This document shows positions 2,879 through 35,747 of a DNA stretch of 64,000 nucleotides, one piece after another (position 1 is the first letter of the stretch; every line of letters begins with the position of its first letter). Made by a program: the position numbers and the translations under genes. The stretch is from IMG/VR virus record IMGVR_UViG_3300032257_000008, positions 9,024 through 73,023 of that record. One strand, written 5' to 3'. The DNA is from a virus (Duplodnaviria; Caudoviricetes). The notes beneath the pieces are model-generated. The model was not told the DNA's origin, did no database searches, and saw nothing but the letters and a program-made list of their open reading frames with translations.

Positions 2879-3283
2879 ATGAATGATTTAACCATTAAAC
2901 CTATTACTCTTACCCTACAACAGCTATCTGATTATGCTGCGGGTAGTATAGGCGTTAGAACAGCTGGTAAACAGTTTCGTAATACCTCACCTGCCTTAGT
3001 CCTTATGGATGGTACAGACTTATCTGTGCAAGCTGGAGAATACTTGTATTCTGAACCTCGTGAGGACTTCGCTACACTATATACAGCCGTTGAAGTAGGT
3101 TTTCCTACCTTCGATGTACCGTTGGAATGGTTAGAGTATGCTGAAGACTCTAATAATCCTACTGGGACAGTATATCCATACATACCTATAGAAATGGTAT
3201 TAAAGTATATCAATGCTGTTGGTATTGATCCTAGTAAGTTCCCTGAAAACTTTATATTAGAACCTACCATTTCTAAAGTGTAA
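2879..3283 (+). CDS. hypothetical early protein
   Basis: 134 aa, GGAG SD. Confidence 0.75.
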   Translation: MNDLTIKPITLTLQQLSDYAAGSIGVRTAGKQFRNTSPALVLMDGTDLSVQAGEYLYSEPREDFATLYTAVEVGFPTFDVPLEWLEYAEDSNNPTGTVYPYIPIEMVLKYINAVGIDPSKFPENFILEPTISKV

Positions 3284-6003: not shown

Positions 6004-6023
6004 GGCGCCTGGCAACAGGCGTT
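6004..6023 (+). terminator. GCAA-tetraloop hairpin
   Basis: ggcgcctg-gcaa-caggcgtt followed by T-rich sequence. Confidence 0.55.
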
Positions 6024-6032
6024 TAGTTCTCT

Positions 6033-6058
6033 TTACACTTACACACCACACCAGATAG
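6033..6058 (+). repeat. 26-nt motif copy 2 (TTACACTTACACAcCACAccAGATAG)
   Basis: 23/26 identical to 2124..2149. Confidence 0.8.
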
Positions 6059-9463: not shown

Positions 9464-9504
9464 GAGTTAGGCGCACATCCGTGCGCTTAGCTCGTTTTTC
9501 TTTT
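9464..9504 (+). terminator. intrinsic terminator, 13-bp stem, ATCC loop, T tract
   Basis: gagttaggcgcac-atcc-gtgcgcttagctc-gtttttctttt. Confidence 0.8.
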
Positions 9505-10303: not shown

Positions 10304-10314
10304 ATAATATCTGT

Positions 10315-10405
10315 GTGCAGCCCTGGGGCTCGAGCCAACCAGCTACCCGGGTTACACTCCTACTCCATATTGCCAGCCCGGTAGTCCTGGGGCTGCACTC
10401 AAATA
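10315..10405 (+). ncRNA. GC-rich structured intergenic element followed by ACTCAAATA
   Basis: 13-bp closing stem gtgcagccctggg/cctggggctgcac with two G-U pairs; inner gctacc(c)ggg/cccggtagt stem. Confidence 0.4.
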
Positions 10406-10418
10406 TTATTTTAAGGAG

Positions 10419-10793
10419 ATGGTTATGCAATATACCTGTCCTGTTTGTGGTTCATCCGGTGGTGATAATGATGATACCTATAAAAATCCAGGTTATTTCT
10501 GTCACCGATGTAATGATGGTACCCGTATGCTACCTAGTAACAACGGTAATATTTTTGTTTATGGTATTCAATGCCATTTCACTAATATGTGGTCACATAG
10601 TGATTGGGATGAAAATAATGAACCTATTACATATGCAACCGAAGAAGAAGCACAAAAAGAATTAGATTCTACAATGCCTGATCTTGAAGATTTAGGACAT
10701 GTAGCTAATGACTGGCGAATATTCCGCTATATGCAGGATTTTCACACTAAACGAATAATAGGCATTAAGTACTATGATCGAACTGGAGAATAA
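10419..10793 (+). CDS. zinc-finger protein
   Basis: AAGGAG SD; CPVC...CHRC. Confidence 0.7.
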   Translation: MVMQYTCPVCGSSGGDNDDTYKNPGYFCHRCNDGTRMLPSNNGNIFVYGIQCHFTNMWSHSDWDENNEPITYATEEEAQKELDSTMPDLEDLGHVANDWRIFRYMQDFHTKRIIGIKYYDRTGE

Positions 10794-13676: not shown

Positions 13677-14069
13677 ATGGAAAATGTAACATGCCCTTAC
13701 TGTGATGCGTCTGCAGAACTAGTTAAGGGTAATGTTATATATCCTTATCGAGAAGACCTTTACCACCTAAATTTTTATCTCTGTCGCCACTATAGTCATG
13801 AACCTGCATATGTTGGGTGTCATAAGGGCACATCCGTGCCCCTTGGACGACTGGCAGATACAGAGCTCAGGCAATGGAAATCAGCAGCTCATAGAGCTTT
13901 TGATCCTATCTGGCGACCAAAGCTAGGTGAAAAGCAAATGTCTCGTAAGAAAGCCTATGCTTGGCTTGCCAGGCAGTTAAATATTCCTAAGAAAGAATGC
14001 CATATTGGTATGTTTGACATAACGCTATGTGCCCAGACAGTAAAACACTCTATGAAATTAAGGAGATAA
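13677..14069 (+). CDS. DUF3268-family zinc-finger protein
   Basis: CPYC...IYP...YVGCHKGT..PLGRLA...AHRAFDPIW...AYAWLA..L.I...CHIGMFD. Confidence 0.8.
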   Translation: MENVTCPYCDASAELVKGNVIYPYREDLYHLNFYLCRHYSHEPAYVGCHKGTSVPLGRLADTELRQWKSAAHRAFDPIWRPKLGEKQMSRKKAYAWLARQLNIPKKECHIGMFDITLCAQTVKHSMKLRR

Positions 14070-18122: not shown

Positions 18123-18144
18123 AGAGCCCATCCGGGCTCTTTTT
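18123..18144 (+). terminator. intrinsic terminator, ATCC loop
   Basis: agagccc-atcc-gggctct-tttt. Confidence 0.75.
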
Positions 18145-23164: not shown

Positions 23165-23692
23165 ATGCAACAATTATACAGACACTTTAATTCCAAAGAT
23201 GAATTGATGTATATAGGGATTTCCTTGAGTACTGTAGCAAGGTTAAGCCAGCATAAAGAACATTCACATTGGTTTAGTGATATTACCAAAGTTACTATAG
23301 AAAAATATGAAACCCGTGAAGAAGTATTACTAGCTGAAAAGCAAGCTATACAAACAGAAAAACCCCTATATAACATTAAACACAATAAACCTAAAAAAGA
23401 AAAAAAGCTTTCTTCTTTCGAAGAGGCAGAAATTTCACGTAAAAGGTTAACAAATAATATAGTAAATTTTCAACCTGTGTATTCAGTTCAACATGTCGCA
23501 AATATATTATATATATCTACTAATAAAGTTAAAACTTTAATGGATAAAGGTCTTTTGGGTAATTTTGAATCTAAAAAATCTTGGTCTGATCGATGGGGAA
23601 AATATATGATTACTCGATGTGTAACAGGATGGCAAATGATAGATTTTATTGAAAATCTAGAAAAAGGTATAGTAAATTTAACTGATCTGTAA
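23165..23692 (+). CDS. GIY-YIG endonuclease with a C-terminal HTH
   Basis: LYRHF...LMYIGIS...RLSQH...AEKQAIQTEKPLYN; HTH-like YSVQHVANILYISTNKVKTLMDKG. Confidence 0.75.
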   Translation: MQQLYRHFNSKDELMYIGISLSTVARLSQHKEHSHWFSDITKVTIEKYETREEVLLAEKQAIQTEKPLYNIKHNKPKKEKKLSSFEEAEISRKRLTNNIVNFQPVYSVQHVANILYISTNKVKTLMDKGLLGNFESKKSWSDRWGKYMITRCVTGWQMIDFIENLEKGIVNLTDL

Positions 23693-23703: not shown

Positions 23704-25278
23704 GTGAAACATATTATATTTGATAAGCCAAGTACGCCTACGGGCCAAAGAACTGCATATAAAGTGGCTATCTTAATAAAAGATAATGCTTTTAATCAAT
23801 CAGATCTGCAACGTTATTATGTTAACCCTATTGCTGCTACTAACTTAATAATGCAACAACCGGATTTAACTTTAAATAATATTATTGCTTTTAATCTTAA
23901 ATATAATGAACATGGTAAAGCACCAGTTAAATTAATTAAATCTCATTTAACAACTGTTCTTCAAGGACTTCAAACTATTGGAGTAAAAACAGTATTAGTT
24001 GCTGATGTTGCATACTTTAAAACTTTAACTAAGTTACGTAAAGCAGAACCACATTATGGTTATGTAAAACCATGCATGTTTCCAGGTGGTGAAGGTATTG
24101 ATGTAGTATTGGTACCTAACTATAAACAATTATTTTATAACCCAGCTCTTCAAGATAAAGTTGATATGGGTATTAATACATTGTGTAACCATGTTAATGG
24201 TACTCATGTTGATCTTGGGCAAGGCATAATCCACAGTGCTCAATATCCAAAAACATTAAATGATATTGAAGTAGCATTAAATAGTTTACATCAGTATCCA
24301 GCACTGACATGTGATATAGAAACTTTTAGTTTAGAGTTTCATAAAGCAGGTGTAGGTACTTGTGCATTTGCATGGGACCAGCACAATGGTATTGCATTCC
24401 CAGTAGATCGTAAAGATGCTGCTAATGTTCCACTATTACGTGGTATCTTTAATGAAGAAGTTAAAAAGTTATTAAGAAAGTTCTTTGAGACTTATGAAGG
24501 TAAGTTAATTTACCATAATGGTAACTTCGACATAAAGATTCTTATCTATGAATTATTTATGGATGGTTTGCTAGATATACCAGGGTTAATACATGGATTA
24601 GATGTTATGTATCGTCTTATAGATGACACTAAACTGATAACTTATCTTGCTACTAACTCTACTGCAGGTAATAACTTAAGCTTAAAGCATAATGCATTTG
24701 AATTTGCTGGTAATTACGCACAAGACGACATTGAAGATATTAATCTGATACCTTTACCTGAGTTATTGGAATATAACTTAGTAGATTGTCTATCTACCTG
24801 GTACGTACACAATAAAAATTATCCTATTATGGTTCAGGATGATCAATTAGAAATTTACAATACTATTATGATTCCAAGTATGAGAGTAATAACTCATATG
24901 GAATTAATTGGTATGCCAATGGATAAAGCACAGATCATAACTACTGAGAAGGAACTACAAGCTATTCTTCAGGAGAATTATGATTTCTTAGCAGCTAGTC
25001 CATTAATAAAAGAACTTGAGTGGAAATTACAATTAGCAGAAATGATATCTGCTAATGCAAAACTCAAACAAAAAGTACGTCCAATTACGGATTTTAAAAC
25101 TAAGTACAATCCAGCATCTGTTAAGCAGACTCAAGAACTAGTTTATAAAACCATTGGTGCAGACATTATTGATACAACCGATACAGGACAACCTGCTACC
25201 GGTGCTAAAACTCTCAAGAAAATATTAAATAAATTAATTAATGAATACAACATAACCGAGGAAGAATTAAATGGCTAA
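23704..25278 (+). CDS. family A DNA polymerase, N-terminal part (N-domain, 3'-5' exonuclease, start of thumb)
   Basis: Exo I CDIET, Exo II HNGNFD, Exo III YNLVD, MELIGMPMD, YNPASVKQ, TDTGQPATG. Confidence 0.9.
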   Translation: MKHIIFDKPSTPTGQRTAYKVAILIKDNAFNQSDLQRYYVNPIAATNLIMQQPDLTLNNIIAFNLKYNEHGKAPVKLIKSHLTTVLQGLQTIGVKTVLVADVAYFKTLTKLRKAEPHYGYVKPCMFPGGEGIDVVLVPNYKQLFYNPALQDKVDMGINTLCNHVNGTHVDLGQGIIHSAQYPKTLNDIEVALNSLHQYPALTCDIETFSLEFHKAGVGTCAFAWDQHNGIAFPVDRKDAANVPLLRGIFNEEVKKLLRKFFETYEGKLIYHNGNFDIKILIYELFMDGLLDIPGLIHGLDVMYRLIDDTKLITYLATNSTAGNNLSLKHNAFEFAGNYAQDDIEDINLIPLPELLEYNLVDCLSTWYVHNKNYPIMVQDDQLEIYNTIMIPSMRVITHMELIGMPMDKAQIITTEKELQAILQENYDFLAASPLIKELEWKLQLAEMISANAKLKQKVRPITDFKTKYNPASVKQTQELVYKTIGADIIDTTDTGQPATGAKTLKKILNKLINEYNITEEELNG

Positions 25279-25731: not shown

Positions 25732-26829
25732 ATGAAAAGAGAAGAAGCTATTGAACAAGCGAAGGTACTCCAGGCATTAATTAATATTGCTAAAGTAAGT
25801 ATCATCTTAAATACATTCATTAAGCCGTTCCAAGAACGGGCTGTTAAAAAAGATAATGGATATATTTATCTTCATGGTAACTTCAACTTAGGTGGAACTG
25901 TTTCGGGTAGACTCAGTTCTTCTAAACCTAATATGCAAAATATACCTAGTAGCTCAAAATACGCCAAGTTAATTAAAAAGTGTTTTGTAGCTCCACCAGG
26001 GTGGATAATGGTTGGTGCTGACTTTGCTTCATTAGAAGACCGAATATCAGCACTTACTACTAAAGATCCTAACAAATTAAAAGTTTATACTGATGGTTAT
26101 GATGGCCACTGTCTACGTGCATACTCCTATTTTGGAGGGCAAATGCCGGACATTCAAGATACAGTTTCCAGTATCAACTCAATCTCCACTAAATATAAGC
26201 ATTTACGTCAAAAATCTAAAGAACCTACGTTCTTGCTTACATACGGTGGTACTTATAAAGGCTTAATGAATAATGTTGGTTTATCCCAGGATGAAGCATT
26301 AAGTATTGAAGCTAATTATCATGAGCTGTATCACGTATCTGATGCCTGGGTACAGGACAAGATAGAGACAGCTTCAAAAGTAGGTTACACAACCGTAGCA
26401 TTCGGTCTGAGAGTCCGTACACCGATCTTAGGTCAAACTATCATTGGTAAGAAAAGTACTCCCTACGAGGCACAGGCTGAAGGCAGGACTATGGGTAATG
26501 CTCATGGTCAGAGTTACGGAATGCTGAATAACCGGGCTGCTATTGAATTCAATGAACGCTTAATGGCTTCTGAGTTTAAATATGATGTCCTCCCCATGTC
26601 CCATATACATGATGCACAGTATTTTCTGATCCGAGAGGACCTGAAAGTAATGAAATGGTTTAATGATAACCTGGTTGAATGTATGGAATGGCAGGATTTA
26701 CCTGATATTAAGCATCCCACAGTGAAGCTGGGAGGCGAAGTAGACGTTTTCTACCCTACTTGGGCCGATAGCACTACTATTCCTAATAAATCCACTGAGG
26801 ACGAAATACAGGAGCTATTCAATGCGTAA
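25732..26829 (+). CDS. family A DNA polymerase, C-terminal catalytic part
   Basis: GRLSSSKPNMQNIP, motif A GADFASLEDRI, motif B RQKSKEPTFLLTYG, motif C HIHDA; own AAGGT SD and ATG. Confidence 0.92.
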   Translation: MKREEAIEQAKVLQALINIAKVSIILNTFIKPFQERAVKKDNGYIYLHGNFNLGGTVSGRLSSSKPNMQNIPSSSKYAKLIKKCFVAPPGWIMVGADFASLEDRISALTTKDPNKLKVYTDGYDGHCLRAYSYFGGQMPDIQDTVSSINSISTKYKHLRQKSKEPTFLLTYGGTYKGLMNNVGLSQDEALSIEANYHELYHVSDAWVQDKIETASKVGYTTVAFGLRVRTPILGQTIIGKKSTPYEAQAEGRTMGNAHGQSYGMLNNRAAIEFNERLMASEFKYDVLPMSHIHDAQYFLIREDLKVMKWFNDNLVECMEWQDLPDIKHPTVKLGGEVDVFYPTWADSTTIPNKSTEDEIQELFNA

Positions 26830-27446: not shown

Positions 27447-27642
27447 AAGCAAATGTTTAATATGCCCTAATTCTGATATATCAGATGTATTAAATAATAA
27501 TAATCACTATTGTAGAAATCCTTTAAATACAAAATTATTTACAATCATAAGGCACCATTATGATGATGGTGGTGACTATCCTACAGAAGTACCTGAATGG
27601 TGCCCATACGGGCACTCACTTGAATTACCTGGAGAGGAATAA
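27439..27642 (+). CDS. small Cys-rich protein
   Basis: CLIC...YC...PEWCP. Confidence 0.55.
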   Translation: MDKSKCLICPNSDISDVLNNNNHYCRNPLNTKLFTIIRHHYDDGGDYPTEVPEWCPYGHSLELPGEE

Positions 27643-32396: not shown

Positions 32397-33143
32397 ATGT
32401 TAGAAAACTTAAAAACCGACTCATCAATTGAAGAAGAAAATGACGTATTAGGTGGTAACGGTCCACTAGATACTGATGCATATGCAATGGCAATTGACAT
32501 GGCATATTTTGATACTGCAGCATCTGGTGCTATCAGTGTTAATCTTACTTTCACTGATGCTACTGGTCGTTCTGTACGCCAAACTATTTATGTAACTTCT
32601 GGTACTGCTAAAGGCGGTAAGAATTACTACATGGTTAAGAAAGATGGTAAAGAAACTGGTGAGAAGCGTTATCTTCCTGGTTTCAATATTGCTAATGCAA
32701 TTGCTCTTCTTTCTGTTGGTAAAGAAATTGCAGATGTTGAAACAGAAGAAAAAACTATCAATGTTTGGAATTCTGAACTTCGTAAAGAAGCACCAGCTAA
32801 GAAGCAATTACTTACTGAACTAATGGGTTCAGAAATTACTCTTGGCCTGGTTAAACAGATTGTGGATAAGAATGTTAAAAATCCATCTACTGGTATGTAT
32901 GAGCCATCAGGTGAAACTCGTGAAGAAAACGAAATTGATAAAGTTTTCCGCACTAAGGATCACTTAACTGTTGCTGAAATTCGTGCTGACGCTACTGAAG
33001 CTGCATTCTACGATAAGTGGGTTGCTAAGAATCAGGGTAACACTCGTAACAAAGCTAAAGGTGGCGGTACTCAAGGTACTTCTGGTTTACCAGGTGCTGC
33101 TCCTGCTGCAGATAGTGCTGAAAAGAAACCATTATTCGGCTAA
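32397..33143 (+). CDS. ssb: single-stranded DNA-binding protein (N4 gp45-like; late-transcription activator in N4)
   Basis: Position after gp44; YLPGFNIANAI, REENEIDKVF, C-terminal KKPLFG. Confidence 0.85.
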   Translation: MLENLKTDSSIEEENDVLGGNGPLDTDAYAMAIDMAYFDTAASGAISVNLTFTDATGRSVRQTIYVTSGTAKGGKNYYMVKKDGKETGEKRYLPGFNIANAIALLSVGKEIADVETEEKTINVWNSELRKEAPAKKQLLTELMGSEITLGLVKQIVDKNVKNPSTGMYEPSGETREENEIDKVFRTKDHLTVAEIRADATEAAFYDKWVAKNQGNTRNKAKGGGTQGTSGLPGAAPAADSAEKKPLFG

Positions 33144-33147
33144 AATT

Positions 33148-33346
33148 CTTTGATCCTTGTTAAGATGAGTAGTGTTAGCATAACGATTGGTGAGACTCCG
33201 ATTGGGCAAGGATAAAGATAGGGGATGAATCATCCTCACTGTGAAAATCAGCAAGTCCGGGGCGTTACAATAGTACGGGTAATGTCCGACCACTCTAAAG
33301 AGGTGGTCTACCCTTTCACTTACTCTGGTAGGTGGAGGGGATTTTT
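33148..33346 (+). ncRNA. candidate structured RNA: six contiguous stems with two T-loops, ending in a terminator
   Basis: cttt(g)atccttg/caaggataaag enclosing attgg-TGAGACT-ccgat; ggggatg/catcctc; ctg-TGAAAAT-cag; gggcgttac/gtaatgtcc; gaccactc/ga(g)gtggtc; 13-bp G-U-rich stem plus ATTTTT. Confidence 0.5.
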
Positions 33347-33350
33347 ATAA

Positions 33351-33420
33351 GCACTTCTGCCCGGGGCACGGGTACCGGGTTCCTCCCGTGCGGAATAACT
33401 CAAATAAACGGAGTGCTTTT
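33351..33420 (+). ncRNA. candidate structured RNA with an H-type pseudoknot and ACTCAAATA
   Basis: Closing stem gcacttc/ggagtgc; S1 cccgg/ccggg, S2 gcacggg/cccgtgc, L1=1 nt, L2=2 nt, L3=5 nt; followed by TTTT. Confidence 0.5.
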
Positions 33421-33549
33421 AAAAATTTAATTCACCAGTTTACAATAGTCATCCCTATTGAATTTGTGGGGTGCGTAAACGGGAATAGTGGTAGTCTTTT
33501 TAAGAACTCTGTTTTCTTCCACTTAAATACGACCAAAAAAATAAGATTG

Positions 33550-33645
33550 CTCCCCTATTAAGGAAGCCCGCGTAGATAGCAGTTTTGGTTCCCACACCAC
33601 TTAAGTGAGTCTACATGTGGAGGGAATGTCCGGAGGGGGAGTTTT
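33550..33645 (+). ncRNA. candidate multibranch structured RNA upstream of dut
   Basis: ctcccct/gggggag closing stem plus TTTT; ttccc/gggaa and ccac/gtgg inner stems; possible gtagat/gtctac pseudoknot. Confidence 0.4.
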
Positions 33646-33679
33646 ATATTATTTTTCTCAATAACTAAGGAAATTATCA

Positions 33680-34249
33680 ATGGGTAAATCCAAAAAAGAT
33701 AAAGGCGGTTTAGACGTAAACACCTCAATCCAAATAGTTGTGGCTGATGATAAGTACATGCCAGTTAAAGCACACGATACAGATGCTGCTTATGATGTCA
33801 TGGCTTGTTTAGAAAACAAAAGCAACACTACTAAATTAATCCCAGGTCAGCGTATTACATTAGATCTTGGTTTTAAACTTGGGTTGCCAGACGGTTATGA
33901 AGCACTCATATCACCACGTAGTGGCTTAGCTTCTAAGCAAGGCATCACTATTCTTAACTCTCCAGGCATAATTGATGCTGGATATCGTGGTGACGTAAAA
34001 GTTATTCTCAAAAACACAGGCGATAAACCATTTTTCTATAATGATGGTGACCGCATTGCGCAGATGCGGATTAAACAGGTACTTCCTACTACTCTGGAAG
34101 CAGTTGATGAACTTGATGAAACAGAACGTGGTGAAGGTGGCTTTGGTAGCACCGGCACAGATAACAATTCTAGTACTGATGGTTCAGATTCTGTAGAAGG
34201 TACTGATGAGTCTGGTAAAGATGATTCTTCGGATACTGGAGAAGAGTAA
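33680..34249 (+). CDS. dut: trimeric dUTPase with an acidic C-terminal extension
   Basis: AAYD, SPRSGLA, GIIDAGYRG, GDRIAQ, RGEGGFGSTG. Confidence 0.93.
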   Translation: MGKSKKDKGGLDVNTSIQIVVADDKYMPVKAHDTDAAYDVMACLENKSNTTKLIPGQRITLDLGFKLGLPDGYEALISPRSGLASKQGITILNSPGIIDAGYRGDVKVILKNTGDKPFFYNDGDRIAQMRIKQVLPTTLEAVDELDETERGEGGFGSTGTDNNSSTDGSDSVEGTDESGKDDSSDTGEE

Positions 34250-35517: not shown

Positions 35518-35747
35518 AATCTGTAAGCTGATTACCGGAAGGGAAATACGGCAGATTAATTAGAGAGTTGAGTCTTGAAAGATCATATGCCTAAGTACCG
35601 GACTAGAAGGGGGGGTTCCGTTAAACTCAAATAAAACGGAAATATCCTTCTTTCTGAAGACCGCATAAAGTCCACATGAATATACCTTTGTAGCTAACGT
35701 GATACACAGTTTAATCAGCAAGGTATGTGGACACCCCACAATTTTTT
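35518..35747 (+). ncRNA. candidate structured RNA region (three domains; ACTCAAATA in a loop)
   Basis: aatctg/cagatt; agaagg/ccttct enclosing ttccgtt-aaactcaaataa-aacggaa; rod gtccac-atacctt-gct-aac-gtg / cac-gtt-agc-aaggtat-gtggac; ends in a T run. Confidence 0.45.

Follow-up and report, generated by a model that had tools for sequence, protein, structure and literature searches.

The stretch analysed here, referred to as the window, covers 64 kb of the 73-kb viral contig IMGVR_UViG_3300032257_000008, in which direct terminal repeats are present, and carries the gene set of an N4-like phage (Schitoviridae), as identified by Pfam, PHROGs and phage-record matches. Its + strand encodes a two-subunit RNAPII, ThyX, a split family A polymerase, a primase, a Sak4-like protein, the single-strand DNA-binding protein SSB, a dUTPase and a RuvC-like resolvase, and the gene for the virion RNA polymerase (vRNAP), with a product of 3158 aa, is located on the − strand. 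The 536 nt that separate the ssb stop (33143) from the dUTPase start (33680), positions 33144–33679, are hereafter called the island. Our verdict is that the island is a lineage-specific set of small structured RNAs placed at the site where this family keeps its RNA genes. The features under discussion are listed below (MFE, minimum free energy; G and L numbers denote loci of related phages).

32397–33143, + strand: ssb, encoding an N4 gp45-type single-strand DNA-binding protein (PHROG 743, E 1e-73; 459 matches of Schitoviridae type among phage records); 5′ boundary of the island
33153–33213, + strand: D1, a long bulged hairpin with a 9-bp base, AUCCUUGUU/GGCAAGGAU (MFE −19.5 kcal/mol, z −2.4)
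33221–33237, + strand: hairpin A, GGGGAUG-AAU-CAUCCUC, from the fold of 33218–33310
33260–33287, + strand: hairpin B, from the same fold
33288–33308, + strand: hairpin C, GACCAC..GUGGUC with a UAAA loop, from the same fold
33311–33347, + strand: T1, a 13-bp stem with a 4-nt loop, followed by AUUUUUA (z −4.67, ensemble frequency 0.91)
33349–33418, + strand: the E2 module, a 9-bp closing stem, AAGCACUUC/GGAGUGCUU, around a predicted H-type pseudoknot
33423–33545, + strand: a stretch weakly alignable (local alignment) to the ssb–dUTPase gap of L117/L118
33430–33486, + strand: the H domain, with basal stem AUUC-A-CC-A-GUUUAC / GUAAAC-GG-GAAU
33448–33474, + strand: apical hairpin H, GUCAUCCC-UAUUGAAUUUGU-GGGGUGC, with a near-identical hairpin in L110
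33549–33657, + strand: the 3′ hairpin, long and irregular, closed by GCUCCCCU/GGGGGAGU (z −0.7, not better than shuffles)
33680–34249, + strand: dUTPase gene (PHROG 135, E 3e-59); 3′ boundary of the island
35518–35745, + strand: E3, a separate conserved structured RNA of ~220 nt, 2 kb downstream of the island

An earlier reading of this DNA (the original prediction) had described the island as a non-coding, GC-enriched tandem cluster of structured RNAs, and this observation proved largely right. All open reading frames (ORFs) in the island are ≤57 aa, the biggest, of 57 aa, having a GTG start, and none is preceded by a plausible ribosome-binding site. The GC content is 0.43–0.51 across 33100–33500 vs ~0.34 in the flanks and 0.361 in the whole window, that is, a peak of 51% against 36% for the genome. 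The statement that this was the largest gap of the early/middle gene block holds for the replication block but not for the early region, where a rough ORF map leaves a longer ORF-poor stretch at 1016–1873.

The + strand of the island folds with an MFE of −167.3 kcal/mol (z −3.59), a value reached by 0/100 shuffles, compared with z −1.38 for the − strand, and the MFE structures contain 19 G-U pairs on + and 9 on −, in agreement with the strand-specific folding that had been proposed. The island had also been thought to be almost fully tiled by stems. Significant structure is confined to 33144–33425, the first ~280 nt and the only stretch that beats shuffles (z −2.4 for D1, −3.0 for hairpins A–C, −4.7 for T1 and −2.7 for E2); the rest does not (z −0.9 for 33427–33545 and −0.7 for 33540–33660). 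For hairpins A–C, folded together as 33218–33310, the unrounded value is z −2.97, with 0/200 shuffles as good. The three T tracts were confirmed, each of them 3′ of a stem (33341–47, 33415–26 and 33643–57), as was the occurrence of TTACAATAGT at both 33265 and 33440. The 5′ strands of hairpins A and H are mutually complementary, and GGGATGA (33222) can indeed pair with TCATCCC (33449), although the switching suggested on these grounds has no comparative support.

In E2 the first pseudoknot stem (33360–64/33375–79, CCCGG/CCGGG, 5 bp) and the second (33366–72/33385–91, GCACGGG/CCCGUGC, 7 bp) are connected by loops of 1 nt (loop 1), 2 nt (loop 2) and 5 nt (loop 3). All 12 pairs are Watson-Crick and the geometry, as predicted from sequence, is that of an H-type pseudoknot, followed by the A-rich strand AAUAACUCAAAUAAAC and flanked by complementary A/U runs (33341–55 / 33412–26). 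Pseudoknots of at least 12 bp arose in only 2/1000 shuffled islands. Loci L109–L111 contain a 68-nt module (L109 3101–3168) with E2-like ends, AAGCACAUUC/GAGUGUGCUU, whose pseudoknot consists of ACCAACA/UGUUGGU and CGUGG/CCACG with loops of 0, 2 and 5 nt, followed by AUAGCUGAACCAA. This module lies 1.2 kb from ssb, between a transfer-messenger RNA (tmRNA) gene and a tRNA gene. The two modules share AAGCAC/GUGCUU-type ends and the lengths of loops 2 and 3, whereas both pseudoknot stems differ in sequence, and the same architecture built from different stems is what conservation of a structure looks like, here in two lineages only. When 1.39 Mb of related loci were scanned with a descriptor, 35 perfect pseudoknots of at least 11 bp were obtained, of which only E2 and the L109 module fall inside listed AAGCAC...GTGCTT modules.

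The H domain also recurs outside the window. In L110 a nearly identical hairpin (2992–3021, GUCAUCCCC-UAUUGCAUUUGU-GGGGAUG) is found ~50 nt 3′ of the tmRNA tag stop, and in L117 the basal stem reads UAUUC-A-CC-A-GUAC/GUAC-GG-GAAUA, with GUUUAC/GUAAAC replaced by GUAC/GUAC. Aligned locally with the L117 gap, the island reaches a score of 47 vs a null of 30.4 ± 4.9 (0/300 shuffles), and ATTCACCAGT occurs exactly in the islands of three lineages; with a single exact copy in the window, it was rejected as a general promoter box. Small protein genes were rejected too: besides the short ORFs noted above, the one reading frame that overlaps the conserved stretch 33423–33545 is interrupted by a stop in L117, so a small protein encoded there is disfavoured. 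Just before the H domain there is a sigma-70-like sequence, TTTAAA-17-TACAAT (33418–33446), which matches at 9/12 positions, no more than chance, and such matches are no commoner in the island than in shuffles. Conservation of the island in other phages is partial, extending to H (L110/L117) and to the layout of E2 (L109–L111) but not to D1, hairpins A–C, T1 or the 3′ hairpin.

E3, which has no Rfam match, shows strong covariation. Its four known members are the one in the window, L103:3318–3585 (−), L066:5845–6075 and L107:3176–3400, and homologues are recorded in G001, L066 and L107. For the first three members RNAalifold (alignment A4) returns 50 pairs, with compensatory changes in 13. There is a long-range closing stem, GCUGAUUA/UAAUCAGC, and the stem of the central hairpin covaries fully in L107. 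The hairpin loop, AAACUCAAAUAA, bears a motif also present in E2. Within it ACUCAA can pair with UUGAGU upstream, and in L066 and L107 the two have become ACUUAA/UUAAGU, a joint change that points to a kissing loop or pseudoknot; the contact made through the ACUCAAAUAAA loop motif would appear to be a kissing contact supported by covariation. In L107 E3 sits inside the ssb–dUTPase island, beside a tRNA-Ser gene, and thus behaves like an RNA gene standing on its own. A 17-nt motif, AACUCAAAU(A)AAACGGA, is common to E2 and E3 (3/300 shuffles).

To place the island in its family we collected the ssb neighbourhoods of 80 IMG/VR relatives together with contigs retrieved via dUTPase homologues, and this confirmed that it lies at the position of the family's RNA genes. 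The ssb–dUTPase interval of G001/L021 holds a terminator and a permuted tmRNA (tag ANDNSYAPVAMAA, 127 bits), that of L066 tRNA-Gln and tRNA-Tyr, those of L012, L024 and L089 tRNA-Gly, and that of L107 the E3 homologue, tRNA-Ser and a tRNA-like stretch. In L109–L111 a gap of 2.1 kb contains tRNA-Asn, tRNA-Gln, a permuted tmRNA (tag ANDETFAQELMAA), a 117-nt tRNA match and tRNA-Ser. L117 has a terminator and no tRNA called by ARAGORN or Rfam. Phage N4 itself has a 1.5-kb unannotated gap between gp47 and gp48, within the ssb-to-vRNAP block, that holds four tRNAs. Since primase, ssb, dUTPase, ruvC and the vRNAP gene of G001, a true relative, align with the window at 66–78% nucleotide identity while the gap itself is unalignable, the content of the site is exchangeable. 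In phage LUZ7 the ssb-to-vRNAP block includes a hotspot for small RNAs (sRNA1–3) in the 398-nt gap between ORF69 and ORF70 (PMC9163698), and two-piece tmRNAs are reportedly frequent among marine and aquatic phages (PMC9004378).

Some of the RNA genes at this site are themselves irregular. The 117-nt tRNA match (L109:3176–3292, also L111:1107–1223; Rfam 51.6 bits, not called by ARAGORN) is too long for a plain tRNA and implies an insert of ~40 nt, by eye in the anticodon region. The tRNA-like stretch of L107 (3640–3720) is a minihelix with a 7-bp acceptor and a UUCGAGU T arm, by eye without a D arm, and L117 has a CCA-ended minihelix with a UUCGAAU loop (800–850); neither was called by ARAGORN or Rfam.

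Canonical RNA genes are absent from the island. ARAGORN found 0 tRNA or tmRNA genes in the window and, relaxed to 80%, gave implausible calls only and nothing credible. Rfam 15 had no match in the window at gathering score, be it tRNA, tmRNA, Y RNA, ribozyme, riboswitch or small regulatory RNA. At E up to 10 it gave no tRNA match in 32900–33900 and only eukaryotic families (microRNA, small nucleolar RNA, long non-coding RNA and an internal ribosome entry site), which are without relevance here. A cloverleaf tRNA (RF00005) was not detected by ARAGORN or by Rfam at E up to 10, and neither program detected a tmRNA, one-piece or permuted (RF00023, RF01849, RF04321). The same tools did detect the permuted tmRNAs of L021 (127 bits) and L109 (83.5 bits). 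A degenerate tRNA, the plain Rfam hit that had been named as the alternative, was rejected, and so was a degenerate tmRNA, none being seen by either program even at lax thresholds.

A bacterial Y RNA (YrlA), a class that is usually encoded next to rsr (TROVE) or rtcB, was rejected as well, given the lack of an Rfam match and the absence of both protein families from the Pfam results for 30 ORFs. No Ro/Rsr, RtcB, CCA-adding enzyme, RNA ligase or SmpB was named by Pfam in these 30 ORFs or by PHROGs in 7 (one ORF in both sets), the latter returning replication and nucleotide-metabolism families only, and these results do not support the proposed Y-RNA-like decoy. No close DNA homologue of the island was found among 50,697 phage records. 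The pattern GGGTTCC..AACTCAAATAA gave chance matches in coding DNA only, and the pattern of the H hairpin had 0 matches in viral contigs, 0 in genome contigs and 5 chance matches in metagenome contigs, 2 of them in a coding frame resembling ribosomal protein L25. Nothing related was present in 80 further loci retrieved via dUTPase homologues. The folding and the negative searches together support a structured non-coding RNA that matches no described family, as the original prediction had stated; its broader idea of undescribed phage RNAs downstream of ssb is a reasonable one, and mimicry of tRNA or Y RNA is not supported.

Part of that mimicry had been placed in D1, which begins 10 nt 3′ of the ssb stop (base-stem pair probabilities 0.77–1.0) and includes ATTGGTGAGAC, the hairpin then described as T-arm-like. 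The proposed elbow (an acceptor-like stem, a T-arm with the UGAGACU loop and a 3-bp D hairpin) folds at −14.6 or −11.6 kcal/mol vs the MFE of −19.5, with a T-arm pair probability of ~0.01. The loops UGAGACU and UGAAAAU do fit the U..A of a T-loop, in a containing fold of probability ~0.01 that lies 5 kcal/mol above the MFE.

D1 can be compared with an element of N4-type phages. The N4 tRNA gap holds an unannotated 77-nt element (L200:5438–5514; phage N4, EF056009 33437–33513), without an Rfam match at gathering score, that is conserved in 83 Enquatrovirinae records (N4 and 82 others, including G7C, KP8 and pSb-1). It consists of a closing stem, a middle hairpin and a T-arm-like hairpin, AUUGG-UGAGACAGU-CCAAU, whose 3′ strand continues directly into the closing stem, and it has 17 pairs, with 94.9% of cells paired and 10 pairs changed on both sides (0/500 shuffles match). 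D1 shares the 11-mer ATTGGTGAGAC with it, as well as a closing stem continued by a hairpin AUUGG-UGAGAC..-CCRAU. However, a covariance model (R1) built from 9 Enquatrovirinae sequences, with the 17 pairs and 10 double changes, had no match at E up to 10 with filters off in D1 (33146–33216), and none in the relatives of the window. The local alignment was equalled by 45/500 shuffles, i.e. it is not significant, and the supported fold, which is the MFE in 7/9 of the N4-family sequences, is 5 kcal/mol worse in D1. Energy, model and alignment all disfavour the elbow fold; D1 as a homologue of this element was rejected, and the likeness is one of resemblance, not membership. In the same N4 gap we observed a compact H-type pseudoknot between tRNA-Thr and tRNA-Pro (L200:4844–4872; GCCAGG/CCUGGC and GGAAU/AUUCC, with loops of 1, 1 and 5 nt), the geometry of which agrees with that of the E2-type modules.

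As for the remaining island features, T1 has the make-up of an intrinsic (factor-independent) terminator, on the + strand only because G-U pairs are required, and can be described as a strong terminator-like hairpin from its predicted stem and U tract. No homologue was found for D1 or for the 3′ hairpin, which is followed by UUUUAUAUUAUUUUU (T3), ending 23 nt 5′ of the dUTPase start. Hairpin A opens with a 10-mer (GGGGATGAAT) with which the coding piece of the tmRNA in the L109–L111 phage also begins, a match that alone is not above chance.

Elsewhere in the window, possible promoters could be recognised by comparison with LUZ7, where a middle promoter is a GC-rich DNA hairpin with a stem of at least 6 bp and a 3–4-nt loop, ~15 bp before the start site (PMC9163698). 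Four GC-rich perfect hairpins with ATCC or ATAC loops (9471–9486, 13826–13841, 18123–18140 and 27600–27615; for example GCGCAC-ATCC-GUGCGC), two of them 20–26 nt 5′ of a start codon, are by analogy candidate middle promoters. The scan of the window placed no such hairpin in the island, hairpin A having only 5 Watson-Crick pairs, and promoter hairpins of the middle or early kind were rejected there. Two further hairpins, at 2099–2140 (CACCC-TAAG-GGGTG) and 6006–6050 (CGCCTG-GCAA-CAGGCG), are each followed by a shared box, CTTTACACTTACACA, and are likely to be early promoters for the virion RNA polymerase. Another strong hairpin, E1 (10304–10410, 52% GC, −46.4 kcal/mol, z −5.0), lies directly 5′ of a gene at 10419, and its 3′ strand has the genome's third copy of ACTCAAATA. 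The split family A DNA polymerase is encoded by 23704–25278 and 25732–26829, its halves separated by a 150-aa ORF, and a GIY-YIG endonuclease ORF (23165–23692) lies just 5′ of it.

The reading we favour, while putting its chances slightly below even, is that the island represents, in this phage, the RNA-gene island that Schitoviridae have in the ssb-to-vRNAP block, here devoid of tRNA and tmRNA and containing only small structured RNA modules. A middle-phase transcript passing through primase, sak4 and ssb would run on into the island, where D1, hairpins A–C and T1 could form a protective folded 3′ end of the ssb message and T1, with its stem and U tract, might halt part of the transcription. 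The read-through RNA would bear E2 and the H domain, which other lineages have in their RNA clusters as well, beside tRNA and tmRNA genes, and since both recur there we take them to be kept by selection. They may be excised or survive as small, stable RNAs, like the neighbouring tRNAs of sister phages, with their unpaired conserved loops AAUAACUCAAAUAAAC and UAUUGAAUUUGU perhaps touching a partner RNA or protein, and the remaining read-through RNA would serve as the dUTPase leader. It is conceivable, if rather doubtful, that at least two undescribed classes of phage RNA are represented here, the E2-type closed pseudoknot and the H domain, as autonomous, selected parts of a toolkit that N4-like phages shuffle among their islands along with tRNAs, tmRNA and E3, and that E2, through its ACUCAAAUAAA loop, could assist or oppose E3 by RNA–RNA pairing.

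Several results weigh against this account. The 3′ half of the island folds no better than shuffles, E2 is conserved in two lineages only and with its stem lengths swapped (5+7 vs 7+5 bp), and its nested MFE (−27.0 kcal/mol) is about equal to the rough estimate for the pseudoknot. No relative was detected for D1, hairpins A–C, T1 and the 3′ hairpin; in a set of 5.8 billion proteins the closest SSB has 61% identity, and the other contigs with the same SSB are identical across the island. Complementarity to the rest of the phage genome is at chance (~20 runs of at least 11 nt vs 19 in shuffles). In addition, if T1 and T3 both terminate, dUTPase needs a promoter of its own, and none was confidently identified.

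The island could instead be the remnant of a decayed tRNA/tmRNA cluster, made up of spacers, processing hairpins and terminators and now plain 3′ and 5′ untranslated regions without a function of their own. All dUTPase-bearing relatives have tRNA or tmRNA at this site or, in L117, the degenerate CCA-ended minihelix; hairpin H comes just after the tmRNA tag region in L110, the E2-like module stands between a tmRNA and a tRNA, hairpin A repeats the tmRNA 10-mer GGGGATGAAT, and the 3′ half is not significantly structured. We nevertheless consider it unlikely, as no trace of tRNA or tmRNA was left for Rfam at E up to 10 and nothing convincing for ARAGORN at 80%, a GC content of 51% and twelve perfect Watson-Crick pseudoknot pairs in a genome of 36% GC are unlike decay, the modules shared with L110 are not collinear, and shared 10-mers are near chance expectation. 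A purely cis-acting role, in which tandem terminators or attenuators after a highly expressed ssb, with a promoter and a leader, set the levels of dUTPase and RuvC, would account for the three units of stem plus T tract, for the terminator-like hairpin after ssb in G001 and L117 too, and for the resemblance to the LUZ7 operon, where terminators are read through stepwise (PMC9163698). Yet 536 nt and a pseudoknot module kept 1.2 kb from ssb in another phage exceed the needs of a terminator, and with promoter-type hairpins with ATCC/ATAC loops absent from the island this role seems quite improbable.

Independent small RNAs acting in trans on host or phage partners have a similarly low standing in our view as the remnant. 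The ACUCAAAUAAA loop motif of E2 might compete for the UUGAGU partner of E3, or tRNA-like decoys might act against host nucleases; the 17-nt motif common to E2 and E3, the pairing of ACUCAA with UUGAGU and its exchange for ACUUAA/UUAAGU in L066 and L107, the sigma-70-like match before the H domain and the small RNAs made from the equivalent block of LUZ7 (PMC9163698) all point that way. On the other hand, antisense or trans targets in the phage genome were rejected with complementarity not above chance, the promoter-like matches are no commoner than in shuffles, tRNA mimicry failed on energy, on model R1 and on alignment, and no RNA-repair or Ro-type partner was named among the ORFs scanned with Pfam and PHROGs.

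Phage tRNA clusters are usually read as devices for codon supply. This clade suggests that the site serves more generally as an RNA cassette, with tRNAs, two-piece tmRNAs and structured RNAs other than tRNAs exchanged between otherwise collinear genomes, and the island, with the canonical genes absent and only undescribed modules left, offers a clean case for asking what such modules do. If E2, H and E3 are indeed stable RNAs, Rfam would gain new families, and there would be a way into RNA-based functions of N4-like phages, for which only the LUZ7 hotspot has been seen experimentally.

That hotspot resembles the island in belonging to an N4-like phage and in being an ORF-free gap of ~400 nt in the ssb-to-vRNAP block, from which several RNAs of <250 nt with common terminators are produced (PMC9163698). 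It differs in showing no sequence similarity, in lying four genes 3′ of ssb, a position nearer that of E3, and in that its transcription has been demonstrated. With the tRNA/tmRNA clusters of N4-like phages (N4 gp47–gp48, L109, G001 and L066) the island shares its location after ssb and before the vRNAP gene on the + strand, its non-coding nature and its GC enrichment, and the L109 cluster has an H hairpin and an E2-type module too; unlike them, the island has no tRNA or tmRNA by ARAGORN or Rfam, lax thresholds included. E2 can also be likened to the autoregulatory pseudoknot of T4 gene 32, both being compact, of the H type, with a 1-nt first loop crossing a 7-bp stem, and beside an SSB gene. 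The T4 element is in the 5′ leader, however, and E2 is downstream of ssb, so that autoregulation in the style of gene 32 is unlikely given this position and that of the L109 equivalent, 1.2 kb from ssb. Another parallel is offered by the small stable RNAs C and D of the T4 tRNA cluster, structured non-tRNA RNAs of unknown function released from the same precursor as the tRNAs: the phage is unrelated and the island is without tRNAs, but they too are structured non-tRNA RNAs in the tRNA-gene region of a phage. The locus belongs to a known kind, the RNA-gene islands of N4-like phages in which small RNAs accompany tRNAs; its content is not in Rfam, and it is unusual in holding no canonical RNA gene.

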